This document shows positions 2,193 to 42,306 of a stretch of DNA of 58,844 nucleotides, piece after piece. The position numbers and the translations under genes are program-made. Positions within the stretch are counted from its first letter, which is position 1. Every line of letters begins with the position of its first letter. Source of the DNA: a virus (lineage: Duplodnaviria > Caudoviricetes); the IMG/VR virus record IMGVR_UViG_3300031463_000546, positions 1 through 58,844 of that record; one strand, written 5' to 3'. The notes beneath the pieces are model-generated. The model saw only the letters and a program-made list of their open reading frames with translations, was not told the origin of the DNA and did no database searches.

Positions 2193-2220
2193 ATCAATTC
2201 CCCCATGTCATCTCTCAAGC

Positions 2221-2511
2221 TCAATCCAAAATCGTCAGCATTACACGTTCAAGGCTCGGGATACGCAGCGTGGCACCCACCGGCAAGTCGAGCGGAAAGC
2301 AAATGTCATTCCAATCACAGATGATCCACCAGAGCGTGGCATCACCCAGATACTGATAGGCCAGCAAATCGATCCGATCTCCGTCCATCACGATATGGAA
2401 GCGGTCGTCCGACTGCGGTGTGGTGTCAGCTTGGGGGCGATTACCCAGGAATTTCGTCTCGCCATCCTGGTAGATCACGCAGTCTCGATAGCGCGAGCGG
2501 TCATTGATCAT
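2221..2511 (-). CDS. LysM-like / tail protein X baseplate protein
   Basis: HIVMDGDRIDLLAYQYLGDATLWWIICDWN...G.TLRIP pattern; position after tube initiator. Confidence 0.85.
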   Translation of the reverse strand: MINDRSRYRDCVIYQDGETKFLGNRPQADTTPQSDDRFHIVMDGDRIDLLAYQYLGDATLWWIICDWNDICFPLDLPVGATLRIPSLERVMLTILD

Positions 2512-2975
2512 CGTCTCACCTCACTGGCATTTACGGATTGTGTCACTATCTCTTCCAGCGTCACCTCGACATCGGCGCGTTGCGGCAGCAGCGTCGTCGG
2601 ATCGAAAAGATAGCTGTAATGCGCACGCACCTCGCGCACGAGACACGGCGTGCCGGGATACAGCTCTCCGAAAAAGAACAGCACCTGGTGCGGCGCTTGT
2701 TTCAGCATCGTGCCGGCGTGCGTCGGATAGAGCAGCGCCTGCAGCCAGGCGACCTGTTTCTTCACGTCTTTCTGGTAGAAGATCGCGGTGAAGCTGATTT
2801 TCCGGGCATCACCGGCGATAAACTGATAGCGTGGGTGACTCATCCCCGGCACCACCAGCGTGGCATAACTGGTCGATTTGCTGTCCACGATATCATTCGG
2901 ATTGTATTGAAATGCCAGTCGTTCACGGGTGATGGCATCGACCAGATATGCTGTTAAGGGTTTCGTCTGTGCCAT
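2508..2975 (-). CDS. Tail tube initiator / CIS-tube-like protein
   Basis: FQYNP...PG..HP.YQF..G..R..SF; LLPQRADVEVTLEE; directly downstream of TMP. Confidence 0.75.
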   Translation of the reverse strand: MAQTKPLTAYLVDAITRERLAFQYNPNDIVDSKSTSYATLVVPGMSHPRYQFIAGDARKISFTAIFYQKDVKKQVAWLQALLYPTHAGTMLKQAPHQVLFFFGELYPGTPCLVREVRAHYSYLFDPTTLLPQRADVEVTLEEIVTQSVNASEVRR

Positions 2976-2983
2976 CCGTTACC

Positions 2984-8379: not shown

Positions 8380-8385
8380 GCCGTC

Positions 8386-27614: not shown

Positions 27615-27673
27615 TCCGATGAGTCAGCAAATCGTGATGTGTGGAACGTGCGGCGAAGCAGCGGAGATGCGGC

Positions 27674-29224
27674 ATGTCGGATGATCTTCGCAAAGCCGCG
27701 GTGCAGATGCCCGAAGCGGATCGGCGGTTACTGGAAACGGTATTCGCCGATACCGTCGTCTGGGGGGAGACGGTGCTGCTCAATCGCGACGGATCACCCC
27801 GGCGCTATTGGGAACACCAGGTGAACGATCTGCGCTGCACCGCCCGCAACATCATCCATCTCGATGGCCGGGACGTGGGGAAGACCATTGTACTCTCCAC
27901 CGATGCGCTCTACTTCGCCACCACGACCGCAGGCGTGTCCGGGCTGATCGCCGCTCCCCATCAGGGACAGCTCGATACCATCATCGAGGAGATCGAGTAC
28001 CAGCTCGATGCCAGCCCGCTGCTGCGCTCGCATCTGGCCGTCAACGCCTTCGGCAAGCCGAAGATTCAGCGCAAGCCGTATTTCCGCGTGGAGTTCAAAA
28101 ACAACTCGGTGTTGTATTTTCGCCCGGCGGGCAATTATGGGGAAGCGTTCCGTTCGCTGCACGTCGAGCGCGTCTGGGTCGATGAAGGAGCCTGGCTCAC
28201 CGAATCGGCGTGGAAGGCGCTCCGGCAATGCTTGAAGGCCGGGGGACGCATGCGGATTTACTCGACCCCGAACGGCATCCGCACCAGCACCTATTACCGG
28301 CTGACCTTCTCGGATCAATTTACGCAGTTCCGCTGGCCCTCCTGGCTCAATCCCAATTGGACGACGGAGCGCGAACAGGAGCTGGTCGAGTTCTATGGTG
28401 GGCGCGATACTGCCGGCTGGCAGCACGAGGTCGCCGGCGAACACGGCAAACCCAGCTATGGCGCCTTCAATCAGGAACAGTTCGATGCCGCTTGCCAGGA
28501 GATTATCGAGTATCGCACCGTGCGCATCACCGGTGACGATCTGTCCGGCTGCCAGGACAATGAGCAGCTTTTCGATTTGCTGGAAGCGATGCTGGACCTG
28601 GTGCCGCAAGCCGGCGTGTTCTGGATCGGCGCCGACCTGGGGTATACCAACGACCCCACGGAGATCGTCGTGTTCCAGGATGCCTCCGGGGAGAAGCCGG
28701 TGGCCAGCCTGGTGCTCCGTATCCACTGTGAACACGTGGCTTATCCCATATTGTCTATGTTGGTCTCGCTCCTGGAGCGCTACTTCACGCCGGCGGGCAT
28801 CGGCATCGACAACGGCGGGAACGGCGGCGCGGTGGTGCAGGAACTGTTGACGCTGGACGCCTATCGTACGCTGAATCTCAGCGGTCGCCTGCGTGGGGTC
28901 GATTTCGGCGGGGTGACCACACTGCCCACCCCGGATGGGGGTGAAGTGCGCAAACGCACCAAGGAACTGATGACCTCCATCATCAACGGCATGCTCCAGC
29001 GCCGGGAGATTCGTTTCCCGCATGGCGATCTGGAACTGCAGGATCAATTCACCACCCATACCTATTCGATGACCAACAACGCGGTGGTCTACTCGAAAGG
29101 CAACGATCACATCATCGACGCGGTGCGCTGCGCCGTGCTGGTGCGGGAACTGGGACGACTCAACCTTGGCGAGACGCAGTCGGTCTGCGTCAGCCCATTG
29201 CTCACGGCTCCGATTTTCTATTGA
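27674..29224 (+). CDS. Terminase large subunit
   Basis: GRDVGKT Walker A, VWVDEG Walker B, YSTPNG, nuclease GADLG...DH..DA. Confidence 0.92.
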   Translation: MSDDLRKAAVQMPEADRRLLETVFADTVVWGETVLLNRDGSPRRYWEHQVNDLRCTARNIIHLDGRDVGKTIVLSTDALYFATTTAGVSGLIAAPHQGQLDTIIEEIEYQLDASPLLRSHLAVNAFGKPKIQRKPYFRVEFKNNSVLYFRPAGNYGEAFRSLHVERVWVDEGAWLTESAWKALRQCLKAGGRMRIYSTPNGIRTSTYYRLTFSDQFTQFRWPSWLNPNWTTEREQELVEFYGGRDTAGWQHEVAGEHGKPSYGAFNQEQFDAACQEIIEYRTVRITGDDLSGCQDNEQLFDLLEAMLDLVPQAGVFWIGADLGYTNDPTEIVVFQDASGEKPVASLVLRIHCEHVAYPILSMLVSLLERYFTPAGIGIDNGGNGGAVVQELLTLDAYRTLNLSGRLRGVDFGGVTTLPTPDGGEVRKRTKELMTSIINGMLQRREIRFPHGDLELQDQFTTHTYSMTNNAVVYSKGNDHIIDAVRCAVLVRELGRLNLGETQSVCVSPLLTAPIFY

Positions 29225-29235
29225 CAAGGACACTC

Positions 29236-30708
29236 ATGGCCAAATCACGATACCGCACATCGCAGCAGACGACCGGCGCAGTGGCGCAGCCGTTGCCCCA
29301 CGCGAGCGCCGCCACCATCGACGGCTCAGCGTTCATCAGTGTCACGCCCACCGATCCGATCCCGGTCACCTGGGAAGAGCGCGCACGACGAGCGTGGACC
29401 TACTATATCGAGGAGCCACTGGTGAAGAACTGCGTCAACTCCTGGCGCTCCTTTGCCGTGGGCGACGAGATCAAGCTGGCCAGCGATGATGAGGTAGTGA
29501 AGGAGGCGGTGAACGAATTGCACGACCGGCTGGCGCTCTCCACCTTCGTCAAGGATATGATCCTGCAATTGCTGGTGAAAGGCGACGCGGTCGGCTTCAA
29601 ACGTTACCGCCAGGATGGGCGCGATGTCGAGGGGATCACCTGCGTCAATCCCACCTCGGTGAAAGTGAAGTATGCGCAAGGCACGCTGATGGAGATGCAA
29701 CAGTACCCGGAGGACGCGCCTGCCGCCGGCGACGGCCTGTCGCTGCCCGTCGAACAGGTGATCCATCTGCGCTGGGATGCGCCGCCGTTCTCTCCGCGAG
29801 GCAATAGCCTGGTGCTGCCCGCCTTCCAGTCCATCGAACTGCTGCGCGATTACCGCAAGGCCGAGCAGGCCATCGCCAAACGCTGGGCCACGCCATTCCG
29901 CCTCATCAAGGTCGGCGGGGCCTACAACCAGCGCGTGATTACCCCTGACCAGAAGATGCTTCAGGACATCCGCGACATGGTCAACAAGATGGACATGAAG
30001 TCGGGCCTGGTGGTGCCGTTCTACGTGGGGGTGGAGACGCATGGCGCCGAGGGAACCGTGCTCAATGTCGAGGAGAAGGTGAAGGAAGTCAAGGAGGACA
30101 TCATCGTCGCGCTGGGGTTGTCCCGCTCGCTGGTGACCGGCGATGGCCCGAATTATGCCACGGCGTCCGTCTCCATGCAGAAGATGCTGGTGATGATTCG
30201 TGAGATCAAACAAATCGCCCGGCAGCTCCTCGACTGGGTGGTGGATGACTGGCTCGCGCTCAGCGGCCATGAGGATGCCACCGTCCAGTATCTCTTCAAC
30301 GATCTCGATCCGAACGACGCGGTCGATATCAAGAAGCTGTTGCTCGAACTCTACGACCGCAAGCTCATCTCCCGCGCCAGCCTGCAGGTGAAGATGGAAC
30401 TGGACCCGGATGTCGAGGCGGCCAACCGCGCGCAGGAGAAGCCGGGCATCGACGTGCTGGACGAGAAGCAGGCGAAGCCTATCGTCGATATGGTCACGCT
30501 CGGTGTGCTCGACGTGGATGAAGCGCGGAGTTTTCTGGGGCTGGGGCCGAAGGCGACCACGCCGGAGACAGCCTCCGCGCGTGCTGTTGCCGATGACGTC
30601 ATCTGTGACGAGTGCCGGCATTTCGAGGACGCGGAAAATCGCTGCGCGGTGCAGCGGCAGGAGACCACCTTCGAGACGCGCGCCTGCCGGTTCTTCGACC
30701 GGAAGTAA
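29236..30708 (+). CDS. Portal protein
   Basis: Position after TerL, ~490 aa; VIHLR...PRG.S; NYATA; Cys-rich C-tail. Confidence 0.85.
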   Translation: MAKSRYRTSQQTTGAVAQPLPHASAATIDGSAFISVTPTDPIPVTWEERARRAWTYYIEEPLVKNCVNSWRSFAVGDEIKLASDDEVVKEAVNELHDRLALSTFVKDMILQLLVKGDAVGFKRYRQDGRDVEGITCVNPTSVKVKYAQGTLMEMQQYPEDAPAAGDGLSLPVEQVIHLRWDAPPFSPRGNSLVLPAFQSIELLRDYRKAEQAIAKRWATPFRLIKVGGAYNQRVITPDQKMLQDIRDMVNKMDMKSGLVVPFYVGVETHGAEGTVLNVEEKVKEVKEDIIVALGLSRSLVTGDGPNYATASVSMQKMLVMIREIKQIARQLLDWVVDDWLALSGHEDATVQYLFNDLDPNDAVDIKKLLLELYDRKLISRASLQVKMELDPDVEAANRAQEKPGIDVLDEKQAKPIVDMVTLGVLDVDEARSFLGLGPKATTPETASARAVADDVICDECRHFEDAENRCAVQRQETTFETRACRFFDRK

Positions 30709-30719
30709 GGGGCGAATCC

Positions 30720-33700
30720 ATGCCGGTCGAAACCACATCACAACACGACCTGATTCGCCAGGCCGTCGCGCAGAGCCTGCATGCGCGGAATCGCTATGTC
30801 GAACAGGTCGTGAACGATCTCACCGATGAGCTGGTTTCCGCACGCGAGCAGGTGGCCGCGGCGATCCTGCGCTACAAATCCCTCGGCTCTCTGCCGGACA
30901 ACAAGCTGGCAGGATTGAAGGGACTGGAACGGCTGGACACTGACATCAAAGGCATCATGACCCAGCTCAAGCGGTCACAGACCGTCCGTTGTCGCACGGA
31001 GGCGAAAGCCGCTTTCCGGCTCGGGGTGTACCACGGCATCGAGGAATTCGCCACCGCGCAACTACCGGTGTATCGTGACCTCACCGCTGATGGGCTGGAC
31101 AAGCTCACCACCAAAGCCTTCCAGATCGTCGATACCGATGCGCTGGACTTTCTGGCGAACTACACCACCACGCTGGTCGGTGACGTGAACCGGGAGACGA
31201 CCGATGGCATCATGCGGACCATCCGCGGCGCCATCGCCACCGGCAAAGGGGTGGATGACATCGTACGCGACCTCGGTGAGGTGGTGAAGGATCAGGAGTC
31301 CTTCCGCCATGCCGGGACAAAAGTGTTCAGCAAGGCGCAGTATCGCATGGAGGTGATTGCCCGCACCGAGGTGCTGCGCGCGCATAACCTGGGCAAACTC
31401 AAATTCCACCAGGCGGTCGGCATCCAGCAGTTGGAGTGGTTCACCATGGATGACGAGCGCATGTGCCCCATCTGCCGAGATCTGGACGGAAAGCCTTTTC
31501 CCATCGACGAATTCCCCGCGCAACCGGCGCATCCCCAATGCCGGTGCGGACATTATCCAGTCTGGCCGTTGGTGATCTGCGGACAAGGCGTGCTGGCAGC
31601 GAGTGCCGCTCCGAAGACCGGCGACGCCTGTATCCTGCCGCCGCAGAGTATCGAGGGGATGGCCGCGGCCCAGGCCGAGGAGCAGAAGACCCTCAAAGCG
31701 GCGTTCGAAGGTGGCGACCCCGCGAAGCTTGGTGCGCTCACCATGAAGCAGGTACAGACACTGGCCAAGCAGCAGGGAGTCGCCATCGCGCGCACCAAGG
31801 CAGATTTCCTCAAGCTGCTCGCGGATAAAGGGGTGGATGGCAGTGGGCTGTCGGGGAAGGCGCTGGAGGCGATGCTCAAGCAGTATGGCATCGGCGCGCT
31901 CCGCAGCAAGGATGAATTGGTCGCGCTGCTGGTGCAGAAACAAGCGGCGTTTATCCAGGCCCAACTCCAGGCGCAACTGTTGAAGGAGGCGGCGCAGTCG
32001 GCTACCGGGCTTGAGTCGATGACGGTGAAAGATCTGCAGGATCTGGCCGTAAAGAAGGGTCTCTCGCTGAACATGACCAAAGCCGACGTCATCGCCTTGC
32101 TCGATCAGTTGGAACCGGGCGTCGATCACAGTGGATTATCCGGGCAGGCACTAATCACTGCAAAGAAACAGTTCCATATCGGCCCACTCAAAAACAAGGC
32201 GCAGCTCATTAAGGCGCTTCAGCAGGTGGCCGGCAAGGAGATGGCACAGCAAGCTATACAGGATACCCAGCAGGCGGCAGTGACGGCAGCGACCAACGCG
32301 TTGAAAGAGGCTGCCGGAAAAGTCATACTCCCGGCGACTCCGAGCAATTTTGCACCGTTCCTTGAACAACTTGCTGCCGCTGAACAGGCGCTGGTCAACA
32401 GCCCCACCGTGCCGCAGGAGGTGATCCAGCAGATCGCCACCGAGCTCTCCGCGAAGAAGCTGGCGTTCCAGCAGCAGGTACTATCCCTTGGCGCTTCAGA
32501 CGTGAAAAAGATCGCGCAGGCGGCAAAAATTCCGAAATACCAGTGGGCGACCAAAGACGAACTCGTCACGCTGATGACCGAAACCTCGCCGGCGAAGCTC
32601 GATCCGGTGAAGCAATCCATCGCCGACAAATGGGCCAAGTGGAACACCCAGCAGCAGGCGCACAAGGTTGGGAAAGTCACCGCACAGGCGCAACTGGAAG
32701 CCCAGCAAGCCGCGGAAGCCGCCGCCGCCAAGGCGAAATCCCTCCTGCAGGACAAAGTCGATGCCGTGATGCATCCCGGCGCTGCCGGGGAATCGCTCGA
32801 TGCCTATGTCACGGCGATGCAGGAATTGAAATCAGCACTCGCGGCACAGGCCGGCATACTCTCGCCGGATGATCTGGCGCACTACTCCGGTGTCACGCAG
32901 GTGTTGCATGGCTGGGGCATCTCCCACTTACAGGAGATGAAAGTTGCCGATCTAAAGAAGCTGGCGCAGGCGAAGAAATTTCCGAATTGGGCCTTTGCCA
33001 ATAAGGACCAGCTTGTGACGCTGCTGTCGGCGTCGGATGAATCAGCCAAGCAGGATGTGTTGCAGGCGCTGGCCACCAAGGTTGCCGGGTATGGGAAAGC
33101 GACGCCTTCCCTGAAATCCGGTAAAGCGCTGGCGGCAGAGTTGGCCACACCCGATACGCCAACGATTCAAATTGGCACGTCCGCTTATGCTCAGGTGGAT
33201 GCGCAGTGGACGAATATCGCCGTCCATCCCGACCGCCATTTTACCTTCGCGCGTGACGCCAAAGATCTGGGTGGCGTTCATCCGAAGCAGATCTATCGTG
33301 ATCCGGATGGTCACGAATGGCTCTTTAAGCCCATTGAGAAGGCGTCGGATGGCTTCCTCGCTGATGCCGATGAGATGACATACCGTGTCTCTCGCCTGCT
33401 CGATCCCAACGCCATCGAGGTGCGCAAGGTGACGTTGAACGGGCAACGCGGCACCATCCAGCGCATGAAGTCAGGATTGCAGGCTCAGAAAAATTATGAC
33501 GGCATGGACCCGGCGTCGATCCCCCCGGAGGAACTGGCGCAACTGCTCCGGCACCATGTCGTGGACTGGTTGCTCTCCAATCATGATAGCCACAGCGCGA
33601 ATTTCCTGCGGCTCACCGATGGCTCGGTGGTGGCCATCGACCGCGCGCAGGCGTTCAAATACTTCGGACGGGATAAGCTGGACATCGGCTATAACCCGAA

Positions 33701-35804
33701 CAACCTGCCGGAGCATCCCACCACACTCTACAATGCCATCTTCGGGCAAGTGAAAAAGAAGAAGCTGATCGTCGATCCGATGCACACATTGGCGGCAATC
33801 GAACGCGTTGAAGCCATCGATGATGCCGAGTACCTGGCACTCTTACGGCCGTATGCCCAGGGACGACCGGAGGGGACCGAGGCGTTCCTGCAGGCGGCAT
33901 TGGAACGGAAGCATGCGCTCCGTGCCGACTTCGAAGGGTTCTATCAAGGCGTCCTGGGTGATAAAACCTTCAGCTTTGAGCAGTTGGTAAAGGCGCGGGC
34001 TAAGCAAACCACCACGGTACTCTCCAAAGAACTGGAAGACGCGGTGAGCACCATCGTGGAGAAAGAATCGTGGCAAGGGGTCGTGATTCCGTTCGACCGC
34101 GACATGGTGGAAGATGTGCAACTCCATCTGTTCACCGAGCGTGTGCCGGGGCGCCGTGGGAAGGTGGATCACCGCACCGTCTATCGGCTGAAGCTGCGTC
34201 CGGACAAACAGCAGCGTATGCTCGATGCCATCGAGATGGTTCAGAAAGGGGAGAGCGGTCTCCCGCGAGCTGGTGATCCCCTGATCGATGACGTGTATTA
34301 CACCCGCATCCTGAATGGCGTGCGCACGGTCAATGCCCATCTGGAACGCGGAGGGAAATTCAACACGTCAAAACTCGATCCGGCCCTTGCGTGTGAAGCG
34401 GAACTACGCACGCTGCTCAATGCTGACCGGATCGAAGTGCGGGACATGGCAGCGCATTACCTGAAGACCATCGATGAGTTGACCATCTTCGCGCGTGGCG
34501 GCGCCACCCCCTCGGGGCGCGTCTCGCAGTTCGAAATGTTCCGCGTGCTGCCCGGGCGCGTGAGTGTGCCAAAGATGACCGGGCCGACGTTCCGTGTAAC
34601 GGAAGGCATCGTGCAGTTCGACCAGCGAATGTGTGTCGAGGGGCATATCGAACTGAAAGCCACCGATAAACGTGTCGGACAACTGTTCAAAGGCAATCTG
34701 CCGAAAACCGGCAAGCAATACACGCTGGAGTATGACGACGGCACGAAGATTCGCGTGCGCCCCTTTGCTACTGACCATTACGACGAGCACTATATTCAGC
34801 CGGGGCAAAACTATTATGCCATCTCCGGCGATATCGAAATCATCGTGCCGGGGAAAGGCACGCCGGAACAGGTGGAGCAGACCTTTGAGAAGCTGCGTCA
34901 ACTCGGCCTGCCCGCGGAAGTGGCGCCCCCCGAATACCAGGAATACCTGTATCTGCACCAGGTGGCGGTCGCCAATAATTTGCATACTTCGGATGTCGGC
35001 TACCAGCAGATGATGCGCCAACTGGAGGCACGGAATGCGCCGATCAGTGAGCGGGTCGAGGAAATGGTGGCGTATTGGAACACACGCCTCAAGGTGAAGG
35101 ATGTGCGGAAGCTGGCCCGGTATAATCCTGCCGGCGAGTATCAGCTCGATACGAGCGAGCGGCGAAAGGGAAACATGGTCGGATATCGGCGCACCTTTCG
35201 TTTCGACCTCGATGTCGAGAAAGAGATGCGCGGGTATAACTTGATCCACCAGGTCGTCGGCGGTGCGGCGGATGAGTATGTGAAGATGGTCGACCTGGCG
35301 CTCTCGCATAACGGATCGCTGCTCTCCACCACGGAGAAGCTACGCATCGGAGTACCGCCGGGGGGCATGTCGCCGGAAGCGGATATGGGTTCCGGTGGGG
35401 CGAATTATGTCTTTACCCGCTGGCGACCCGATCCCCGCGGCGCCAAGTCGTTCCGCGAGATGGGCTTCTACTTGAGGCCCGGTGTGGTGCAGCGCACGGA
35501 CACCATCGTATATGCCACCGACCATTACGGACGGTGTTACGGGAAATTCGTCGAGACGCACCGGGAGACGTCGCCGGCGCGGTGGAAGCGCATTGCCGAG
35601 ACCAGCCGGAATAACGAAACGATCATCAAGCAGAACGTGACGCTGCTTGACAATCTCGACTGTATCGTGTTGGATTCAGCCAGCGCCAAGCAACAGATGA
35701 TCGCCATATTCCAGAAGCATGGCGTGACCGCGTTGCCGGACGGACGGAAGATCGAAGAGATCATTCACATCATCCCCGGCGCGAGGAGAGGATATACGGG
35801 ATGA
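30720..35804 (+). CDS. MuF minor head protein fused to HeH repeats, HipA/PI3-4K-like kinase and ART-like domain (polymorphic toxin-like)
   Basis: IARTE, D.R.CPIC..LDG, PAHPQCRC (MuF); six LxxMTVxxL..K.EL-type repeats; LGGVH..WLFKP..DWLLSNHDSH..N..IDRAQAF; LIH..LLS..GGANYVFTR. Confidence 0.88.
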   Translation: MPVETTSQHDLIRQAVAQSLHARNRYVEQVVNDLTDELVSAREQVAAAILRYKSLGSLPDNKLAGLKGLERLDTDIKGIMTQLKRSQTVRCRTEAKAAFRLGVYHGIEEFATAQLPVYRDLTADGLDKLTTKAFQIVDTDALDFLANYTTTLVGDVNRETTDGIMRTIRGAIATGKGVDDIVRDLGEVVKDQESFRHAGTKVFSKAQYRMEVIARTEVLRAHNLGKLKFHQAVGIQQLEWFTMDDERMCPICRDLDGKPFPIDEFPAQPAHPQCRCGHYPVWPLVICGQGVLAASAAPKTGDACILPPQSIEGMAAAQAEEQKTLKAAFEGGDPAKLGALTMKQVQTLAKQQGVAIARTKADFLKLLADKGVDGSGLSGKALEAMLKQYGIGALRSKDELVALLVQKQAAFIQAQLQAQLLKEAAQSATGLESMTVKDLQDLAVKKGLSLNMTKADVIALLDQLEPGVDHSGLSGQALITAKKQFHIGPLKNKAQLIKALQQVAGKEMAQQAIQDTQQAAVTAATNALKEAAGKVILPATPSNFAPFLEQLAAAEQALVNSPTVPQEVIQQIATELSAKKLAFQQQVLSLGASDVKKIAQAAKIPKYQWATKDELVTLMTETSPAKLDPVKQSIADKWAKWNTQQQAHKVGKVTAQAQLEAQQAAEAAAAKAKSLLQDKVDAVMHPGAAGESLDAYVTAMQELKSALAAQAGILSPDDLAHYSGVTQVLHGWGISHLQEMKVADLKKLAQAKKFPNWAFANKDQLVTLLSASDESAKQDVLQALATKVAGYGKATPSLKSGKALAAELATPDTPTIQIGTSAYAQVDAQWTNIAVHPDRHFTFARDAKDLGGVHPKQIYRDPDGHEWLFKPIEKASDGFLADADEMTYRVSRLLDPNAIEVRKVTLNGQRGTIQRMKSGLQAQKNYDGMDPASIPPEELAQLLRHHVVDWLLSNHDSHSANFLRLTDGSVVAIDRAQAFKYFGRDKLDIGYNPNNLPEHPTTLYNAIFGQVKKKKLIVDPMHTLAAIERVEAIDDAEYLALLRPYAQGRPEGTEAFLQAALERKHALRADFEGFYQGVLGDKTFSFEQLVKARAKQTTTVLSKELEDAVSTIVEKESWQGVVIPFDRDMVEDVQLHLFTERVPGRRGKVDHRTVYRLKLRPDKQQRMLDAIEMVQKGESGLPRAGDPLIDDVYYTRILNGVRTVNAHLERGGKFNTSKLDPALACEAELRTLLNADRIEVRDMAAHYLKTIDELTIFARGGATPSGRVSQFEMFRVLPGRVSVPKMTGPTFRVTEGIVQFDQRMCVEGHIELKATDKRVGQLFKGNLPKTGKQYTLEYDDGTKIRVRPFATDHYDEHYIQPGQNYYAISGDIEIIVPGKGTPEQVEQTFEKLRQLGLPAEVAPPEYQEYLYLHQVAVANNLHTSDVGYQQMMRQLEARNAPISERVEEMVAYWNTRLKVKDVRKLARYNPAGEYQLDTSERRKGNMVGYRRTFRFDLDVEKEMRGYNLIHQVVGGAADEYVKMVDLALSHNGSLLSTTEKLRIGVPPGGMSPEADMGSGGANYVFTRWRPDPRGAKSFREMGFYLRPGVVQRTDTIVYATDHYGRCYGKFVETHRETSPARWKRIAETSRNNETIIKQNVTLLDNLDCIVLDSASAKQQMIAIFQKHGVTALPDGRKIEEIIHIIPGARRGYTG

Positions 35805-36277
35805 AACCGATTGCGCCTACGGATACCGACAAGCCGATGGAAACGCTCATCGCGTGCATCGAGGAACTCAACGCCGGTGGCTCGGACGGTAAACTCGTCT
35901 GGTCGGATGGCTTTGCCATATCACTCGGCGTCATCGTGCGTGTTGAGATCAAAATGGTCGATGATCCACGCTACTTCTTCCTCGCCCATGCCGTCCTCGG
36001 TTTCGAAGAGGGTGGTGAGCACCATGGCGGCGTCCATGTGCATAAGATCGTCAACTGGTATGCCGATGATCCGCCACTCGAATTTGCGGTGATCGATACC
36101 GAGGGACGCACATTGGAGTTCTGGCTGATTGAACCGAGCTGCCAACCAGAAGAGGCTCAAGCATATGCGGCATGGCGTGAACAGATGGATCGCCAATCCG
36201 AGATGCGTGATGCCGCCTATACGCGAATGCGTGAAGCGTTGGAAAGTATGGCGCGTGAGTGGCCGGAGGATTACTAA
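35801..36277 (+). CDS. Acidic hypothetical protein, candidate immunity 1
   Basis: ATGA-coupled to MuF gene; small, acidic. Confidence 0.6.
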   Translation: MKPIAPTDTDKPMETLIACIEELNAGGSDGKLVWSDGFAISLGVIVRVEIKMVDDPRYFFLAHAVLGFEEGGEHHGGVHVHKIVNWYADDPPLEFAVIDTEGRTLEFWLIEPSCQPEEAQAYAAWREQMDRQSEMRDAAYTRMREALESMAREWPEDY

Positions 36278-36279
36278 GC

Positions 36280-36648
36280 ATGAAAGTGGAGTATTACATC
36301 GAGTATGCGCTCAAGCACGATTCGACTGATAGGTATTACTACAAGCCCATCGGCGTCTGGGCACATGGCCTGGGGGGAGGCTTGAACGTGTATGGCCTAT
36401 ATCTTCCCGAGGAAACCGAAGCCCAGGAACGTGCTGATTGGATCATCAACGATCTGGTCGAGCAGGAGGTGGTGACGCTCCCGGAGGATTGGCTTCGGCG
36501 AAAAGCCGCGAGCATTGGACTCTACCAGGGAGATGTTTCTCCGATCTACTTCACCGAGGGATTACACGCAGATGATGTGGCGGAACGCGTGCTGGCGTTG
36601 ATTATGGCTGGGGGGCCGATTGGCGATCCACCGTTGCCTTCCGCATAA
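36280..36648 (+). CDS. Acidic hypothetical protein, candidate immunity 2
   Basis: GGAGG RBS; directly follows previous gene. Confidence 0.6.
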   Translation: MKVEYYIEYALKHDSTDRYYYKPIGVWAHGLGGGLNVYGLYLPEETEAQERADWIINDLVEQEVVTLPEDWLRRKAASIGLYQGDVSPIYFTEGLHADDVAERVLALIMAGGPIGDPPLPSA

Positions 36649-36888
36649 TGCCATCGTCTGTTGGTATAACCGCGATAGAGGTAGCAACCTACTCAGTGAT
36701 ATCCCCGAGTCAATCGGCATAAATGACAATTTGTAGAGAGCTACCTCTTAGTCACTATACAGGATTTAGTACTGGCGATATAATTCCGATGTCTTTGGGC
36801 AGCAACGCCCTACGCAAAATTGAGGCACTCGGCTGGTCCAGACATCGGTAATAAGATATCGCACTACATGGTGAAGGAGGCAATTTTT

Positions 36889-37350
36889 ATGAGTAGGGTA
36901 ACCGCTCTGAAGTTCACAACGCGAGGCTTCAGCGTTGTCACGCTCGAGGGGACACGAACAACCCCCACTTGTGTTACTAATAAGGCGTTACTCTATCCTA
37001 CTAGCCATGATACATCGAGACTGATGGACTGGTGTGAAACCCAATTCAATCTGCTAATTGACCAGGAAATCCCTGACAGAGTCGCTTATAAGTTGGTAAC
37101 CTCCCTATCAGCACACGACCAAATATTCCACGTCTACTACGCACTAGGCGTGCTCCACCTTGTTTGTCATAAAAAAGAATTGGAGATCCAGCACGTTACT
37201 CCGTCTAGCTTATCTGCCAGATGTTTCGGCCTTCAACAAGGCACTGACATGGACAGCTATATTGCCTCGTTATTCACTGGTCGCCCGTCTCCTTGGAATA
37301 GTGAGATTCGGGAAACAGCTTTAATTGCCTTGTCGAGGTTAGGACGATGA
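36889..37350 (+). CDS. RuvC/RNase H-fold-like protein, acidic catalytic residues apparently lost
   Basis: LIDQEIPDRVAYK...ALGVLHL...IQHVTPSSL mirrors RuvC layout; AAGGAGG RBS; AT-richer. Confidence 0.55.
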   Translation: MSRVTALKFTTRGFSVVTLEGTRTTPTCVTNKALLYPTSHDTSRLMDWCETQFNLLIDQEIPDRVAYKLVTSLSAHDQIFHVYYALGVLHLVCHKKELEIQHVTPSSLSARCFGLQQGTDMDSYIASLFTGRPSPWNSEIRETALIALSRLGR

Positions 37351-38360
37351 CTTCAGGCTACACAGATATCGGAAAATACCAAAGAATTGAGAGACTAGGT
37401 GGTGGTTATTTCGGCGATGTTTATAGGGTATATGATCGCGCGTTAGATACCCAGAGAGCGCTTAAAGTAATCCCGGAAGATCCAAGCCATCCTCGGGATA
37501 TTGAATTATGGGAGGCACAGCTCCTAGAAGTATGCAAACACAAACACATCGTTGAAGTAAAGGAAGCAGATCTTGCAGACGTTGATGGAATTCCCAGCGT
37601 TATCATTGCATGCGAATTGATGCCAAGAGGATCTGTCGATGACCTGTTAGAGAATAACTTTATATCGGTATATTCGTCTGCTGATATTATTACTCAAGCA
37701 CTGTTCGGTTTAGCGCACTTACACGCAGCAGGAATCTTACACTGCGACTTAAAACCAGGGAATTTACTGATTGGCGATAGTGGAGTGATAAAATTATCTG
37801 ATTTCGGGTTGGCTGTTTCGTGTGGTGACACACCAGACCATTTTTACACTATGCATAAAGCTCCCGAATTAATTCTCGGTGAGGCTCCATCCGAACTGAC
37901 CGATGTTTATGCAGCCGGAGTCACCTTATTTCGCTTACTGAATGGTGTTTATGATATCGCAGCTATACTACCCACGAACTTTAATGAGGCAATTACTCGT
38001 GGCCGTTTCCCTGATAGGTCAGCTTACTTGCCACATATACCTGAAAGAGTAAAACGCATATGCAATCGAGCAATGCATATAGATAAGACAAAACGGTTTC
38101 AGAGTGCAGATGGGTTTCGCCAAGCACTCGAGGGACTCCCATGGAGTATTGACTGGCATAAGATCAGTGACACTGAATGGCATGGAATAAAATCCGACGT
38201 GCAATATACTATAGAGGTATTTGAAAAGCGTACTGGATGGTGCCTTGATTTCAAACGTAATAATAGACGAATTATTGATTATTGCGGATCAAGGTTACCG
38301 TCTGAGATGGACGCTGTTTCTGCTTTGTATGAGATGATACGCACTACAACATTGAGTTAG
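37347..38360 (+). CDS. Hanks-type Ser/Thr protein kinase
   Basis: LGGGYFGDVY, ALK, HCDLKPGN, DFG, APE, DVYAAG. Confidence 0.95.
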   Translation: MTSGYTDIGKYQRIERLGGGYFGDVYRVYDRALDTQRALKVIPEDPSHPRDIELWEAQLLEVCKHKHIVEVKEADLADVDGIPSVIIACELMPRGSVDDLLENNFISVYSSADIITQALFGLAHLHAAGILHCDLKPGNLLIGDSGVIKLSDFGLAVSCGDTPDHFYTMHKAPELILGEAPSELTDVYAAGVTLFRLLNGVYDIAAILPTNFNEAITRGRFPDRSAYLPHIPERVKRICNRAMHIDKTKRFQSADGFRQALEGLPWSIDWHKISDTEWHGIKSDVQYTIEVFEKRTGWCLDFKRNNRRIIDYCGSRLPSEMDAVSALYEMIRTTTLS

Positions 38361-38730: not shown

Positions 38731-38796
38731 TATTTGCTGCCTCAAACGTATGAGGGTGCATGTAGGGGTGTTTACACCCCGCCAGAGATCACTCAC

Positions 38797-41700
38797 ATGC
38801 ACACCTTCGCTACCGACCTGGATCGTATAGTCTTCCTCCTGGAAGCCGATGCCGACCTGCATGGCTTCCTCGGCCTGACCGCCGAGGGAGCCACACAGGA
38901 GCCGTCGGTTGACATCACCACCGAGGAACTCCCCGAGGGTGAACGTCCGAAGTACATCACCAACTACATCGGGAGCAAGCAGAAACTCGTCGAGTGGATC
39001 TGGAAGCATACCCCGGATGGCATCGCCTCGGTGCTCGATGGGTTCAGCGGGTCGAGTGTGGTCGCCTATATGTACAAGACCAAGGGGCTGCGAGTGGTCG
39101 CCAATGACCGGCTGCGCTACGCCTATCACGCCGCGCGGGCCATCGTTGAGAATGATGACACCCGCATCAGCAGCGAGGAACTGAACACGCTCCTGCAGCC
39201 CAACGCGAAAGCCGCCACCTTTGTGCAGGACAACTTCAAAGGGTTGTTCTTCGCCAACGGCGTGCATGCGATCATCGACCAGGTGCGCGCCAATATCGAC
39301 GCGGTCTCCGGTTACAAAAAAGACATTGCCCTCTTCGCCCTCGGTAAAACGTGCATGTCCGGCAAGGGGGGATTCGGACACTTCTCCAGCAGCACCGATT
39401 ACGGCAAACGGCAGGATACCCCGGATGAATTCAAACAGCGCTTCGCCAAAAACGTCGCCCGCATCAACGCACTGGTATTCAGCAACGGCAAAGACTGCAA
39501 GGCGAACCAGAAAGACATCAACGCCCTGCTACCCGAGGTGAAGGTCGATCTCGCGTATTTCGATCCACCGTATGCTACCGAGTTCAGCACCACCAATTAC
39601 GAGAAATCCTACCATTTCGTCGAAGGGTTGATGAGCTACTGGGATGGGTTGGAGATCAAAGCTGATACAAAGACGCATCACTACGTCACCGATCACCAGA
39701 CGGTGACCAAGGCAAATGCCAATGCTTTCTTCGCTGAGTTCCTGGCCAATGCCAAGCAGATCCCGCATTGGCTGATTTCCTATCGGGATCATGCCTATCC
39801 GAACGAAACGGAGATGCGTCAGATCATCGCCGACACCGGCAAGGATGTCAGCCTGCGCTCGCACGACCATCATTATTCGATCTCCTCGCGGCATGGCGAT
39901 GCGTCCGATGCCAAGGAGTACCTGTTCATCTGTGCGCATGATACCGGCGCGAAGGCTAAGGCTGATGAAGAAGCGGGGGATTTCGAAACGTCCGGGGAGT
40001 TGGATCATCTGGAACTCCTTACCTGCATGGCGGGTAAAGACGATGACCCTGTGCGGGTCACCGGCTACATGGGCTCTAAGTACGTCATGCTTGGGTGGAT
40101 CGCCCGGCAAGTACCGAAGGAGGCGAAGTCCATTCTCGATGCCTTCAGTGGCGGGGCGAATGTCGCCTACCACTTCAAACGCCAGGGGCTGAAGGTGGTC
40201 GCCAACGACCTGCTGCGCTATCCCTATCACCTGGCGCGCGCGGTGGTCGAGAACAGCCATGAAACGCTCACCGATGACGATATCGAGCGCATCCTCGCGC
40301 CGAATGCCGATGCCGGGGATTTCATCGTGCGCACCTTCCACGGTTACTACTATTCGAAGCCGGTGCTGGCGTGGCTAGACCAGGTATGGGCGAACATCCA
40401 GAAACTGCCCGGCTACAAGAAAGACCTGGCGCTGGCGACCCTCGGCACCACGGTGAAGGCGAAATCCGCTTTCGGACAGTTCAACCGTTCGAAGAAAAAT
40501 TCGAAAGCCTCGCTGGATGCTGACGCTGGTCTGTCCAATTCCCAATTGACCAATGTGCCAGTCTCCGAGTTCGTGGCGACCTTTCGCAAAACCGCCAAAC
40601 GGCTCAACAGCCTGGTATTCGATAACAGCCAGGAGTGTAAAGCGACGAATCTCGATGCGGTCGAGGCCGTGCAGAAAGTTGGCGCCGATGTGCTCTATCT
40701 CGATCCGCCGTATGTCACCGAGTTCAATCGGAACGATTACGAGAACGATCTGCATTTCGTTGAAGGTTTGATGACCCGCTGGGCCGACAAGGAGATTCTC
40801 GACAACGGGCGTCGGAGCTATCCGTCGCGCACCACCTTCACACGGGAGTCGATGCAGGAGTTGATGGCGTCGCTGGCGCGCGAGTCGCGCGGCAAGTATG
40901 ACACGGTGCTCCTCTCCTATCGCGATAAAGCCTTCCCCGCTGAAGCGGACATCCAGCGCATCTTCGCCGAACACTACGGACTGGTACGCCGGAAAGCCAT
41001 GGAGGTGGAGTACAACATGGCGCGCACCTATGGCGCCGGCGGTCAATTCGCAAAAGAACTGCTCTTCGTCTCCTCGAAGCCGCGCCAGGCGGCGAAGACG
41101 GCGCAGGCCGATCACCGCCCGGCCAATTGCCATACCAGCGTGCCCGTGGACATTCATCTCTCGACGGAAGGCCAGGCAACAACACCCGGGTCGGGTGATC
41201 CACGTTTCACTTGCATCCTCTGCCGGGTCGGCACGAACAAGAACGGCGACCACTTCCTCGCTGAAGAGCTGGCTAGCCGCTACGTGACTGCCGTCAACAA
41301 AAAAGTCGACCTGCAGCACTCGCAGGATGTCACCGATATCGTCGGCGGCATTGTCGGCTCGGATTACATCGAAGATGACGCCGGGGGCCGGGTCGAGTGC
41401 GTCGGCGAGTTGTATGTCCAAGATGCGCCCAATGCGCAGTTGGCCTACCGGCTGATGAAGTCCGGCATCATCGCACAGGTCTCGATGGAGTGCGATTACA
41501 CCGAAGGCGAATGCTCGGTCTGCGGGAAGCGGGCGCAATCGAAAAACGATTACTGCCTGCATCTGCGTAAGTACAAAGGCGGCGACTTCCAGGGTCAGCC
41601 CGTCTATGAAATTCTGCATGGCGTGACGTTCACCGGTCTCGGTCTGCTCGACCGCAAAGGGGCCGACGAAAATGCACGCATCACCCAGGTGGCCTCGCAG

Positions 41701-42306
41701 GGGGCCGACATCCCGGAAGGAGACACAATGGACGAACCGATCCGCGACGCGGCTGACAGCGAGGCCGCCAAAAAATCCACGCCGCCCGCGGGAGGCGGCA
41801 CACCGCCGGCAGATCCTGCCGCACAACTCAAGGCGCTGGAGCAGGAGAACAAGCAACTGAAGCAACAGGTTGTTGATCTGCAAAAGCAAGTCGACGAACT
41901 GCTGGCCGCACAGAAAGCCGCCGCCAATCGTGCCAAAGCCCAGGCGCTGGTGCGCAAGCTGGAACGCCAGGGGCTGAAGTTCGGCACCGACGAGGAGAAG
42001 GATGTCGAAATCGGTCGGTTGGCTGGCCTCTCCGATGAGGCATTTGCCGCCAGCGAAGCCGCTTATGGTCGTATGGCACAGGCCATGCCCGGCAAAACGG
42101 ATGCCAGTGATAAGACCAGTCAGGCCGACAAAGCCGATTGTGCTTGCGACAAGAGTAAAGCCACCGAGCAGATCACCCCGCCGTTGAAAACGGATGCCGG
42201 GGTGCGCCCGCTGGACGTCGATGACCGGAATGACTCGCTGGAAGAGCAACTGAAACGTGGCTTCCAGCAAGCGTATGACGAGCGCATCGCCCGCGTACAG
42301 AGTTAA
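38797..42306 (+). CDS. Tandem N6-adenine DNA methyltransferases fused to prohead protease and scaffold
   Basis: YIGSK/DGFSGS/DPPY and YMGSK/DAFSGG/DPPY; then NKNGD.F, DLQH, VSMEC..CSVC, GAD..A.I; coiled-coil tail; lies immediately before decoration and capsid genes. Confidence 0.88.
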   Translation: MHTFATDLDRIVFLLEADADLHGFLGLTAEGATQEPSVDITTEELPEGERPKYITNYIGSKQKLVEWIWKHTPDGIASVLDGFSGSSVVAYMYKTKGLRVVANDRLRYAYHAARAIVENDDTRISSEELNTLLQPNAKAATFVQDNFKGLFFANGVHAIIDQVRANIDAVSGYKKDIALFALGKTCMSGKGGFGHFSSSTDYGKRQDTPDEFKQRFAKNVARINALVFSNGKDCKANQKDINALLPEVKVDLAYFDPPYATEFSTTNYEKSYHFVEGLMSYWDGLEIKADTKTHHYVTDHQTVTKANANAFFAEFLANAKQIPHWLISYRDHAYPNETEMRQIIADTGKDVSLRSHDHHYSISSRHGDASDAKEYLFICAHDTGAKAKADEEAGDFETSGELDHLELLTCMAGKDDDPVRVTGYMGSKYVMLGWIARQVPKEAKSILDAFSGGANVAYHFKRQGLKVVANDLLRYPYHLARAVVENSHETLTDDDIERILAPNADAGDFIVRTFHGYYYSKPVLAWLDQVWANIQKLPGYKKDLALATLGTTVKAKSAFGQFNRSKKNSKASLDADAGLSNSQLTNVPVSEFVATFRKTAKRLNSLVFDNSQECKATNLDAVEAVQKVGADVLYLDPPYVTEFNRNDYENDLHFVEGLMTRWADKEILDNGRRSYPSRTTFTRESMQELMASLARESRGKYDTVLLSYRDKAFPAEADIQRIFAEHYGLVRRKAMEVEYNMARTYGAGGQFAKELLFVSSKPRQAAKTAQADHRPANCHTSVPVDIHLSTEGQATTPGSGDPRFTCILCRVGTNKNGDHFLAEELASRYVTAVNKKVDLQHSQDVTDIVGGIVGSDYIEDDAGGRVECVGELYVQDAPNAQLAYRLMKSGIIAQVSMECDYTEGECSVCGKRAQSKNDYCLHLRKYKGGDFQGQPVYEILHGVTFTGLGLLDRKGADENARITQVASQGADIPEGDTMDEPIRDAADSEAAKKSTPPAGGGTPPADPAAQLKALEQENKQLKQQVVDLQKQVDELLAAQKAAANRAKAQALVRKLERQGLKFGTDEEKDVEIGRLAGLSDEAFAASEAAYGRMAQAMPGKTDASDKTSQADKADCACDKSKATEQITPPLKTDAGVRPLDVDDRNDSLEEQLKRGFQQAYDERIARVQS
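41728..42306 (+). CDS. Nested in-frame scaffolding protein (internal start)
   Basis: AAGGAG RBS then ATG 41728 in frame; coiled coil LKALEQENKQLKQQV. Confidence 0.65.
   Translation: MDEPIRDAADSEAAKKSTPPAGGGTPPADPAAQLKALEQENKQLKQQVVDLQKQVDELLAAQKAAANRAKAQALVRKLERQGLKFGTDEEKDVEIGRLAGLSDEAFAASEAAYGRMAQAMPGKTDASDKTSQADKADCACDKSKATEQITPPLKTDAGVRPLDVDDRNDSLEEQLKRGFQQAYDERIARVQS

Follow-up and report, generated by a model that had tools for sequence, protein, structure and literature searches.

One gene of the window (that is, the whole stretch of 58,844 nucleotides analysed here, IMG/VR record IMGVR_UViG_3300031463_000546), located at 30720..35804 on the + strand, encodes a giant protein that we consider, with a probability of about 0.6, to be a virion-packaged polyvalent MuF effector of the MuF/SPP1-gp7 kind, co-ejected with the phage DNA. 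According to the ORF list and its translation, the 1,694 residues that precede the stop codon comprise a MuF part, six HeH-like repeats, a kinase domain, a middle region, and a C-terminal domain that resembles the ADP-ribosyltransferase (ART) DarT. It is the joining of a capsid-anchoring part and DNA-binding-type repeats to a kinase and a DarT-like enzyme that makes this protein look like a two-enzyme weapon injected together with the DNA.

The ORF runs from 30612 to 35804 (+) as one uninterrupted reading frame, and the likely start of the gene is the ATG at 30720, which lies 12 bases past the TAA of the portal ORF (the portal ends at 30708) and is preceded by AAGGGG. Full-length relatives of the protein have 1,693–1,702 residues and show an identity of 70–89%. 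The genes for the large terminase (27641–29224) and the portal (29221–30708) are located immediately upstream, and those for the scaffold and the major head protein are found downstream. The carrier is a sheathed-tail provirus (IMG/VR class 'provirus') that encodes a large serine recombinase at positions 1–1941 of the − strand. When the whole giant protein was compared by sequence search with the solved structures nothing was retrieved at E ≤ 1, and profiles of its parts gave chance-level rows only; likewise, PADLOC detected no DarT and no kinase defence family in either half of the protein.

The MuF core (Phage_Mu_F, PF04233) was detected by Pfam at residues 164–276 (31209..31547, +) with an E value of 1.2e-14 and 55.4 bits versus a cut-off of 29.6, and it is part of a wider head-morphogenesis region of approximately residues 1–330. 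Ten PHROG families of the 'head and packaging' category match the giant protein at E ≤ 2.4e-10, and phrog_6577 spans residues 42–639 with an E value of 9e-141. A motif search revealed six repeats within residues 335–772 (31722..33035, +), located at 31722–31829, 31836–31940, 32004–32111, 32124–32228, 32481–32585 and 32931–33035, with their ends near residues 368, 405, 462, 501, 620 and 770. The first four form a duplicated double unit, given that residues 335–407 and 429–503 align with a score of 137 (z 20.8; 27.2 ± 5.3 in 1,000 shuffles). As for their family, repeat 3 resembles SAP (PF02037; E 9.4e-5, 22.4 bits versus a cut-off of 23.9) and Rho_N (PF07498; E 0.0034), repeats 5 and 6 gave weak Rho_N matches (E 0.12 and 0.024), and repeats 1, 2 and 4 gave no match to the HeH families of Pfam; none of the six exceeds the curated Pfam cut-off for SAP or Rho_N. 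Precomputed matches to PF07498 are present in 9/50 hits and to PF02037 in 3/50, the query itself excluded. The HeH type of these repeats is suggested by sequence only. A preliminary description of this DNA had proposed a MuF domain, now placed above the Pfam cut-off, followed by six HeH/Rho-N repeats at about 31730–33030; the motif search recovered both their number and their position, whereas the family name is backed for just three of the six, by weak SAP or Rho_N matches that all fall below the cut-off.

The next domain, an atypical protein-kinase-like domain, comprises residues 841–1080 (33240..33959, +). Its structural model (pLDDT 90.2) shows a two-lobed kinase fold, which as a predicted structure would belong to the PI3/4K-like branch. 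Foldseek retrieved 335 matches to this model at E ≤ 0.001, and all those among the matches listed are kinases; with VIA-align, the Z scores were 14.1 for CtkA, 13.5 for PI4KII-alpha, 12.5 for MavQ and 10.9 for HipA. The nearest structures, i.e., CtkA from H. pylori, PI4KII-alpha, MavQ from Legionella, Fam20 and HipA, align over approx. 200–230 residues (Z 10.9–14.1), and the phage kinase family retains without exception the catalytic Lys, the D-x-H-x-x-N loop and the metal-binding Asp; however, the kinase of the giant protein is only 10–17% identical to these structures and stays below the cut-offs of the corresponding families, since the isolated domain reached 15.9 bits versus 27.1 with PI3_PI4_kinase (PF00454), in the catalytic-loop region only, and HipA_C (PF07804) gave 21.6 bits versus 30.5 (E 1.8e-4) over 31 residues only. 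The motifs GGVH, LFKP, DWLLSNHDSHSAN and IDRAQAF were all found in the translation. Residues K870 (33327–33329), D956 (33585–33587) and D974 (33639–33641), to which the roles of ATP-binding Lys, catalytic-loop Asp and metal-binding Asp were assigned by their motif position, are invariant in the 112 aligned sequences, and D949 is present in 110 of them; these counts, as well as those given below for the ART domain, refer to sequences that are 20–56% identical to the query. The fold does not reveal to which class the substrate of this kinase belongs (protein, lipid or other).

Between both enzymes, residues 1081–1495 (33960..35204, +) form a middle region in which the secondary structure of both models distinguishes an alpha/beta part, a beta-rich part and a helical bundle. 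No Pfam family was found in this region, and the fold searches gave no confident match (weak VIA-align rows, Z 4–6). Two candidates for the beta-rich part (approx. residues 1292–1375), namely a DnaK substrate-binding domain (Foldseek probability of 0.03–0.4) and a CYTH-like fold (VIA Z of 4.0–4.4), were taken as noise.

The C-terminal domain, residues 1496–1694 (35205..35801, +), gave the cleanest structural result. Its model (pLDDT 89.8) shows the DarT fold, as far as a prediction goes: the first four ranks of VIA-align, out of 48,161 chains, are DarT structures (7omu, Z 11.6; 7omv, 11.3; 8baq, 11.0; and 7yk3, 10.4), aligned over 151–161 of their 200–220 or so residues with an rmsd of 3.1–3.7 Å. 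After DarT, the next match is SopF (Z 6.3), and Tpt1 (Z 6.2) and OspC3, CopC and CteC (Z 4.5–5.4) also appear. The motif H...LLS...GGANYVFTR is present in the domain and conserved in its relatives. Among 103 aligned sequences, S1551, D1555 and D1601 are found in all, E1633 (35616–35618) in 102, R1567 in 99 and H1510 (35247–35249) in 95. In the model, the opening strand of the domain ends with H1510 and a late strand begins with E1633, sites that we take to be the H and E positions of the H-Y-E ARTs. Four elements would be common to the domain and DarT, in the same order: the His that closes the opening strand, a turn G-x-L-x-S, a strand aromatic-x-F-x-R and, late in the domain, a strand led by Glu. 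When a profile of the domain was compared with 11 true DarT sequences using hhalign, the local alignment placed NETIIK (with E1633) on the qAEFLV strand that carries the catalytic Glu of DarT (E 0.069, non-significant), and a forced global alignment placed H1510 on the YH of DarT (E 0.26, also non-significant). The phage domain differs from DarT in that it lacks membership at the sequence level: the Pfam DarT model (PF14487), which detected DarT in 27 of 201 genomes searched, gave no match over the window at E ≤ 10, in agreement with the PADLOC result. The likeness is one of predicted fold only, and a shared fold leaves the substrate unfixed. These results strengthen three proposals of the preliminary description, i.e., a HipA/PI4K-like kinase, now backed by both fold searches and by invariant residues of catalytic type; about 400 residues of unknown nature, which correspond to the three parts of the middle region, none of them confidently matched; and an ART-like C-terminus, which had been presented as its weakest call and is the one with four DarT chains on top.

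A viral structure library also yielded matches to the ART domain among the proteins of baculoviruses and iridoviruses, and these may belong to a DarT-related group; a group described in this way is named in the text of PMC9503650. DarT itself is a toxin of roughly 200 residues paired with the macrodomain protein DarG, whereas the phage domain is the C-terminus of a virion-type protein of 1,694 residues; furthermore, according to PMC9503650 and PMC13645617, DarT serves the host as a defence by modifying the DNA of phages, and the domain reported here is on the phage side.

At E ≤ 1e-3, the module that extends from the kinase to the ART (854 residues) was found in 1,993 representatives of clusters, whose names go no further than 'head morphogenesis' or 'minor capsid' protein, and the exact layout of the giant protein corresponds to a family of hundreds of clusters. 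A domain-wise phmmer search showed that, among the best 150 of the listed hits, 107 have the kinase and the ART, 30 have only the former of these two domains, and 13 only the latter, although these best 150 favour proteins with both parts because the ranking is by total score. In most of the best hits, the kinase, the middle region and the ART are conserved end to end as a block of approx. 850 residues. Between phages with major head proteins that are 68–84% identical, residues 1239–1694 show an identity of 36–39%; a divergent C-terminal part as opposed to conserved head proteins was considered a signature of conflict, and taken as support for the effector reading. Cultured mycobacteriophages have related fusions, i.e., McProf gp54, Onyinye gp16 and Phrappuccino gp195 ('minor capsid and ADP-ribosyltransferase fusion'), with a kinase part 30–35% identical to that of the giant protein (E 1e-28 to 4e-24) that is unannotated in their records; McProf gp54 is also placed between the portal and the scaffold. 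These fusions differ in that their ART is of the Alt/VIP2 type (ADPrib_exo_Tox) instead of DarT-like, and in that they do not have the HeH repeats, the methyltransferase or homologues of ORF-A and ORF-B, the two small ORFs described next.

ORF-A (158 residues; 35801..36277, +) starts by overlapping the stop codon of the giant gene and, as detected with its profile, follows it in 14/14 assessable related loci. ORF-B (about 120 residues; 36259..36648, +) has a conserved Met at 36280, three bases past the stop of ORF-A, and is present in 13/13 assessable related loci; the stops and starts of both ORFs overlap or abut. No match was obtained for ORF-A in Pfam, PHROGs, PADLOC, PDB or the Atlas, nor for ORF-B in Pfam, PHROGs, PADLOC or PDB. 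In particular, Pfam gave no Macro or NADAR match for either ORF at E ≤ 0.001, nor for the relatives of ORF-B at E ≤ 1, limits that leave room for distant versions, and no reversal enzyme of the macrodomain or NADAR type was recognised near the giant gene. The complex prediction between residues 1401–1694 and ORF-A gave a score of 0.00, a 'no answer' that counts neither for nor against binding. Profiles of both ORFs detected nothing beside the ART-only relatives (locus L014 and the Pseudanabaena phage Pan1) or beside those that combine the kinase with another ART (McProf and Onyinye); therefore, their distribution follows that of the phage lineage, or of the methyltransferase, no less than that of either enzyme. 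This methyltransferase is a double D12-class N6-adenine DNA methyltransferase (38734..42306, +; Pfam MethyltransfD12 in two stretches, E 1.5e-44; phrog_27806), which is found downstream of the module in 12/12 assessable related loci.

A layout in which one ORF unites MuF with a kinase fold and an ART fold is that of the polyvalent proteins. The texts of PMC5512222 and PMC5576092 describe MuF proteins as head components located with the portal, and their enzyme fusions are read there as injected effectors; the polyvalent MuF proteins of Iyer et al. 2017 (PMC5512222) combine several effector domains with the head-associated MuF, and are considered injected early effectors. That article lists ARTs, kinases and rare Rho-N/SAP HEH domains; its kinase, however, is described as a truncated Ser/Thr/Tyr-kinase clade without the C-terminal subdomain, found mainly in Verrucomicrobia-Chlamydia and Bacteroidetes, whereas the kinase of the giant protein is PI4K/CtkA/HipA-like and has a full C-lobe. 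The word 'DarT' occurs 0 times in PMC5512222, its supplementary files aside. The MuF polymorphic toxins described by Jamet et al. 2017 (PMC5576092) also begin with MuF, end in a toxin-like part, are directly followed by a small ORF and are carried by temperate phages; according to that text they differ in having usually a single C-terminal toxin (a nuclease, a metallopeptidase, an Alt-type ART or a RelA-like enzyme) instead of two enzyme folds, six repeats and approx. 400 further residues, and 'kinase' occurs 0 times in its main text, the supplementary domain tables aside. The multi-warhead reading of the preliminary description, set against MuF toxins that usually carry one C-terminal toxin, understates what was already established: multi-enzyme polyvalent MuF proteins are a class of their own in PMC5512222, and the layout seen here recurs throughout the family described above. 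Working precedents for an injected ART and for a phage kinase that disarms defences are provided by T4 Alt, a head-packaged and injected ART (PMC9503650), and by the T7 protein kinase, whose phosphorylation of many proteins of the host disables defences (PMC13645617); both are separate small proteins of other families, and the T7 kinase is made after entry and is not packaged.

The mechanism that we infer, which includes the packaging and co-ejection of the protein, the binding of the repeats to DNA, and the activity and targets of both enzymes, would be as follows. The MuF part would seat the protein inside the capsid, beside the portal, and the six HeH-like repeats would tether it to the packaged dsDNA, so that it may leave the capsid with the DNA at infection. 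Both enzymes would then act in the new host within the first minutes, ahead of phage gene expression. The kinase would most likely phosphorylate host proteins. The DarT-like ART would transfer ADP-ribose from NAD+ to some macromolecule of the host; since no known structure is closer to this domain than DarT, DNA is the most likely target. Jointly, the two enzymes may stall host replication or disarm defences. The 'DNA-piggybacking multi-warhead effector' proposed in the preliminary description is a reasonable reading to infer from this protein. Among the points against it, lysogeny would require a temperate phage to contain the harm done by a DNA-modifying toxin that it injects itself, and neither enzyme is placed by a sequence model in a curated family.

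Regarding the target of the ART, it is possible, if somewhat unlikely, that this domain modifies protein or RNA, as T4 Alt/ModB, SopF or Tpt1 do, and that its likeness to DarT reflects no more than common descent within the H-Y-E ARTs. Its next structural neighbours are indeed protein ARTs (SopF, OspC3, CopC and CteC) and the RNA 2'-phosphotransferase Tpt1, SopF, OspC3 and CopC are the only structures in which the helical bundle that precedes the core aligns along with it (163/176 to 418/447 of the model), and the MuF-fused ARTs described in PMC9503650 are of the protein-modifying Alt/VIP2 type or of the N4-ART family; nevertheless, DarT scores approx. 4–5 Z units over every protein or RNA ART, and the same protein has DNA-binding-type repeats and a DNA methyltransferase as a companion. 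The two small ORFs bear on another reading, which we regard as unlikely, in which the giant protein is a classical MuF polymorphic toxin that, whole or as its C-terminal part, is released or delivered to kill or inhibit competing bacteria, and ORF-A and ORF-B make the lysogen immune, either each against one enzyme or both against the ART. The N-terminal MuF, the toxin-like C-terminus, the small ORF directly behind it and the serine-recombinase provirus would all suit such a toxin, as would the regular presence of both ORFs with overlapping or abutting stops and starts, and the text of PMC11699363 describes a prophage ART toxin, Bxa, that is neutralised by two downstream immunity proteins. Against it, both ORFs are missing from the profile results beside L014, Pan1, McProf and Onyinye, and neither resembles a known family of immunity proteins or ADP-ribosylhydrolases. 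We also know of no export or release route for MuF toxins.

The conservation of the kinase-middle-ART block, with 107 of the best 150 listed hits holding both enzymes, could also indicate, instead of two separate weapons aimed at the host, a coupled unit that acts on the phage's own DNA, for instance by modifying or capping the entering DNA against nucleases or restriction. The MuF part and the HeH repeats would place the enzymes on DNA, the DNA methyltransferase is always syntenic, and ARTs of the Tpt1 type are among the structural neighbours. We judge this proposal improbable: the ranking of those 150 hits is biased to two-part proteins and still includes 30 with the kinase only and 13 with the ART only, the mycobacteriophages combine the kinase with another ART and, to our knowledge, no enzyme with a protein-kinase fold phosphorylates DNA. 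Finally, the C-terminal domains could lack catalysis altogether and contribute nothing but mass or scaffolding inside the head, as giant head proteins without known activity exist and neither enzyme reaches a curated sequence cut-off; this seems extremely unlikely, in view of the near-total retention of the catalytic-type positions (K870, D956 and D974 in 112/112, and E1633 in 102/103) at such low identity.

Within the injected-effector reading, a more elaborate scenario can be put forward as a long shot: the injected ART would ADP-ribosylate the unmodified DNA of the host, the double N6-adenine methyltransferase would mark the DNA of the phage and thereby exempt it as a substrate, the kinase would silence defences simultaneously, and ORF-A and ORF-B would restrain both enzymes until packaging. 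If true, the phage would carry a self/non-self pair derived from a toxin of the defence type, and a virus would be running a restriction-modification logic in which ADP-ribosylation replaces cleavage. DarT is known as a bacterial toxin that halts phages through ADP-ribosylation of their DNA; its fold, predicted here for the far end of a phage head protein, suggests that phages may use the same chemistry in the reverse direction, before phage gene expression. Because some two thousand representatives of the module are labelled merely as 'head morphogenesis' or 'minor capsid' proteins, a sizeable set of injected enzymes may be hidden under these names, and the kinase family is also present, without annotation, in cultured mycobacteriophages. 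The idea can be tested with single-domain carriers in culture, McProf and Onyinye for the kinase, and Pan1 for the ART. Among the more distant arrangements, a relative (P0063) shows the order portal-MuF-ART-PolyVal-kinase, and the search for stand-alone ART genes in the viral contigs yielded no clean neighbourhood: one candidate (P0131) led to no locus, and another (P0141) was discarded, as its locus (L032) carries the full module again.

The analysis confirmed that a single giant MuF gene encodes both a kinase and an ART-like end, as the preliminary description had proposed, and supported its domain calls. The gene lies within an ORF spanning positions 30612-35804 (+), and its start is likely, from the sequence context, the ATG at 30720, which sits just behind the TAA of the preceding ORF (ending at 30708) and an AAGGGG stretch; the product would have 1,694 residues. 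That the reading frame is real is shown by full-length relatives with 1,693-1,702 residues and 70-89% identity. The large terminase (27641-29224) lies upstream and the portal (29221-30708) directly upstream; on the 3' side follow, in order, two small ORFs, a 176-aa ORF, a Hanks-type kinase and a 1,190-aa double D12 DNA methyltransferase, and farther downstream the scaffold, the major head protein, the tail sheath and the endolysin. A large serine recombinase is located at the left end of the window, which comprises 58,844 bases, is classed as a provirus in IMG/VR and has a CheckV completeness estimate of 43. The phage is temperate and contractile-tailed, and the giant gene fills its slot for a minor head protein; the likeliest host phylum is Armatimonadota, since several of the named relatives derive from Armatimonadota MAGs. 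The N-terminal half agrees with the MuF domain claimed for it: Phage_Mu_F was detected above its cut-off at residues 164-276 (E 1.2e-14), PHROG adds ten head-and-packaging families, all at E≤2.4e-10, and the profile phrog_6577, of unknown function, spans residues 42-639 (E 9e-141).

The isolated kinase segment gave only sub-threshold Pfam matches, all of them at the catalytic loop (HipA_C, 1.8e-4; PI3_PI4_kinase, 0.013; Fam20C, 0.11). Folding of residues 841-1262 together with 52 relatives gave a model of pLDDT 90.2, which has 335 Foldseek matches to the PDB at E≤0.001, and each one listed is a kinase; PI4KII-alpha is at the top (2.7e-5), and Vps34, HipA, LepB, CtkA and Fam20C are also present. 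A VIA-align comparison covering 48,161 chains gave Z scores of 14.1 for CtkA, 13.5 for PI4KII-alpha, 12.5 for MavQ, 11.9 for Fam20, 11.5 for ATM, 11.1 for actin-fragmin kinase and 10.9 for HipA. K870 (in LFKP), D956 (in NHDSH) and D974 (in IDRAQAF) are each present in 112/112 aligned sequences, D949 in 110 and H955 in 104 of them. The HipA/PI4K-like assignment is thus borne out by the fold and by the three invariant residues, and the model places the kinase in the PI3/4K-like branch, its predicted active site being intact. The substrate class (protein, lipid or other) cannot be read from the fold; by analogy proteins would be favoured, because CtkA, HipA, Fam20 and actin-fragmin kinase all phosphorylate proteins, and because bacteria rarely contain phosphoinositides.

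Residues 1081-1495 comprise, in the models, an alpha/beta part, a beta-rich part and a helical bundle; structure comparison yielded no confident fold assignment for them, in agreement with the roughly 400 residues of unknown nature described earlier. The C-terminal end is better defined. No Pfam family matches residues 1131-1694 at E≤1; residues 1239-1694, folded with 53 relatives, gave a model with a pLDDT of 89.8 and a pTM of 0.84. Against the PDB, Foldseek returned nothing at E≤0.001 for this model, and its best rows are ARTs, i.e., SopF (7.6e-3) and the Thermus DarT (9.5e-3, probability 0.99). In VIA-align, four DarT entries take ranks 1 to 4: 7omu (Z 11.6, 151 residues, rmsd 3.1 A), 7omv (11.3, 155 residues, 3.3 A), 8baq (11.0, 161 residues, 3.5 A) and 7yk3 (10.4, 155 residues, 3.7 A), all aligned over model residues ~258-456, which correspond to protein residues 1496-1694. 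The Z score then drops to 6.3 for SopF, 6.2 for Tpt1, 5.4 for OspC3 and 5.3 for CopC; only in SopF, OspC3 and CopC do the helical bundle and the core align together (Z 5.3-6.3). These searches bear out the ART-like fold that had been claimed.

Across 103 aligned rows S1551, D1555, G1559, D1601 and G1604 are invariant; H1510 is kept in 95/103, R1542 in 101/103, Y1563 in 92/103, F1565 in 95/103, R1567 in 99/103 and E1633 in 102/103. In the model, the domain's first strand ends with H1510 and a late strand opens with E1633, positions that we take to be those of H and E in H-Y-E ARTs. An hhalign register test against 11 true DarT sequences, obtained from PF14487 matches in 27/201 genomes, placed NETIIK over the DarT qAEFLV strand in local mode (E 0.069), and in forced global mode IHQ on YHITH and NGSLLS on G-x-L-x-S (E 0.26); both registers are consistent with a DarT-like reading, neither being significant. 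The Pfam DarT model itself has no match in the whole window at E≤10. Given the VIA-align ranks and the conservation on one side and this absence on the other, the modelled domain has a DarT-like fold and what appears to be an intact active site, but is no member of PF14487. In a viral structure library its best matches are uncharacterised proteins of giant viruses, baculoviruses and iridoviruses, which may belong to the ORF28 group. This group is termed DarT-related in PMC9503650.

Between MuF and kinase, six repeats of ~35 residues were found (335-370, 373-407, 429-464, 469-503, 588-622 and 738-772), the first four being a duplicated double unit (z 20.8 versus 1,000 shuffles). Scanned individually, repeat 3 matches SAP (E 9.4e-5, 22.4 bits against a cut-off of 23.9) and Rho_N (E 0.0034), and repeats 5 and 6 match Rho_N weakly (E 0.12 and 0.024); repeats 1, 2 and 4 have no HeH family match in these scans. 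Precomputed matches to Rho_N exist in 9/50 relatives and to SAP in 3/50, the query excluded. The claimed number of repeats therefore stands, their HeH/Rho-N nature is seen weakly in half of them, and, from the sequence, all six are likely of the HeH type.

Residues 841-1694, searched against 1.84 billion representatives, retrieved 1,993 proteins at E≤1e-3 (1,508 at ≤1e-10 and 475 at ≤1e-30), many aligned end to end and 1,100-1,900 residues long. Domain-wise phmmer on the best 150 of the 1,993, whose ranking by total score is biased towards proteins with both domains, found kinase plus ART in 107, kinase only in 30 and ART only in 13; by single-query detection, MuF is visible in 56. The sources call these proteins nothing more specific than 'head morphogenesis' or 'minor capsid' protein, precomputed Pfam annotation in relatives is limited to MuF, Rho_N, SAP and, in two proteins, ADPrib_exo_Tox, and 14 of 19 kinase-bearing giant proteins scanned have no Pfam family at E≤1e-4. 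Among cultured phages 22 records matched, each over ≤19% of the query. The kinase is contained in gp54 of mycobacteriophage McProf, gp16 of Onyinye and gp195 of Phrappuccino, annotated solely as ART or minor capsid fusions, and the ART domain in the head morphogenesis protein of Pan1. In McProf gp54 a VG15 N-terminus precedes the kinase (~482-724), and an Alt-type ART follows at 1007-1176. The unannotated kinase of McProf gp54 (L002, 1555-5112) and Onyinye gp16 (L034, 3440-7462) is 30-35% identical (E 1e-28 to 2e-24). Protein P0063 (2,799 aa), one of the 19 scanned, is a portal-MuF-ART-PolyVal fusion ending in the kinase, and P0138 (5,839 aa) has the kinase at 5399-5651 followed by a hydrophobic stretch. 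At locus L032 the protein is divided over two ORFs that overlap, one with MuF (489-1358) and one with the HeH-kinase-ART part (1289-4831); an assembly error, a frameshift or a natural split may account for this.

The literature already recognises polyvalent MuF proteins, head-packaged ARTs and MuF polymorphic toxins (PMC5512222, PMC9503650, PMC5576092 and PMC3482391), and the giant protein falls into the first of these classes, as a polyvalent MuF effector. The polyvalent MuF kinase of PMC5512222 is of a different, truncated clade and is not the kinase of the giant protein; a kinase is not mentioned in the main text on MuF polymorphic toxins (PMC5576092), in contrast with the fold found here. 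Among the papers listed as naming both MuF and DarT, only PMC9503650 deals with the subject, in passages that treat the two in separate contexts, and no listed title or abstract describes this module; supplementary domain lists may hold more. The protein carries two enzyme families undescribed for this class and is part of a widespread unannotated family. We infer its delivery, activity and targets; T4 Alt (PMC9503650) and T7 kinase, which disarms defences (PMC13645617), are precedents for the proposed actions, as is Bxa, an ART of a prophage that comes with two immunity proteins (PMC11699363).

Fifteen related loci (L003-L013, L015-L017 and L032) were compared. ORF-A (35801-36277) follows the giant gene in 14/14 loci with sequence there, ORF-B (36259-36648) in 13/13 assessable ones, and the double methyltransferase lies downstream in 12/12. 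None of the three was found at the ART-only loci (L014, Pan1) or at loci with the kinase plus another ART (McProf, Onyinye). Since a single phage lineage, in which the major head proteins share 68-97% identity, supplies all full-module loci, this synteny may reflect descent as much as function. Within this lineage residues 1239-1694 are only 36-39% identical where the major head protein reaches 68-84% and the methyltransferase 48-64%, and for L006, L007, L009 and L012 the same 36-39% stands against 68-82% in the major head protein; the C-terminal part evolves much faster than the surrounding structural genes, a sequence divergence that fits an arms-race role.

Inside the head module, the 1,190-aa methyltransferase (38734-42306) carries two D12-class adenine methyltransferase units; its true start may be near 38797, because BLAST alignments to relatives begin at residue 22. 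Between ORF-B and this gene the related loci carry differing inserts, and here the site is occupied by the 176-aa ORF, which fits no known family, and the Hanks-type Ser/Thr kinase (36820-38360), within the lowest-GC stretch of the window (48% over 36001-38000). The latter matches Pkinase (4.4e-35) and, in PADLOC, PD-T4-6 (2.5e-39) and mad6 (7.5e-45), and has the appearance of a defence gene carried by the prophage at a moron hot spot. At 2984-11067 (-), adjoining the serine recombinase and opposite to the main structural module, three large ORFs carry, respectively, a minor-tail-protein domain, chitobiase/Fn3/PKD and NHL/PKD.
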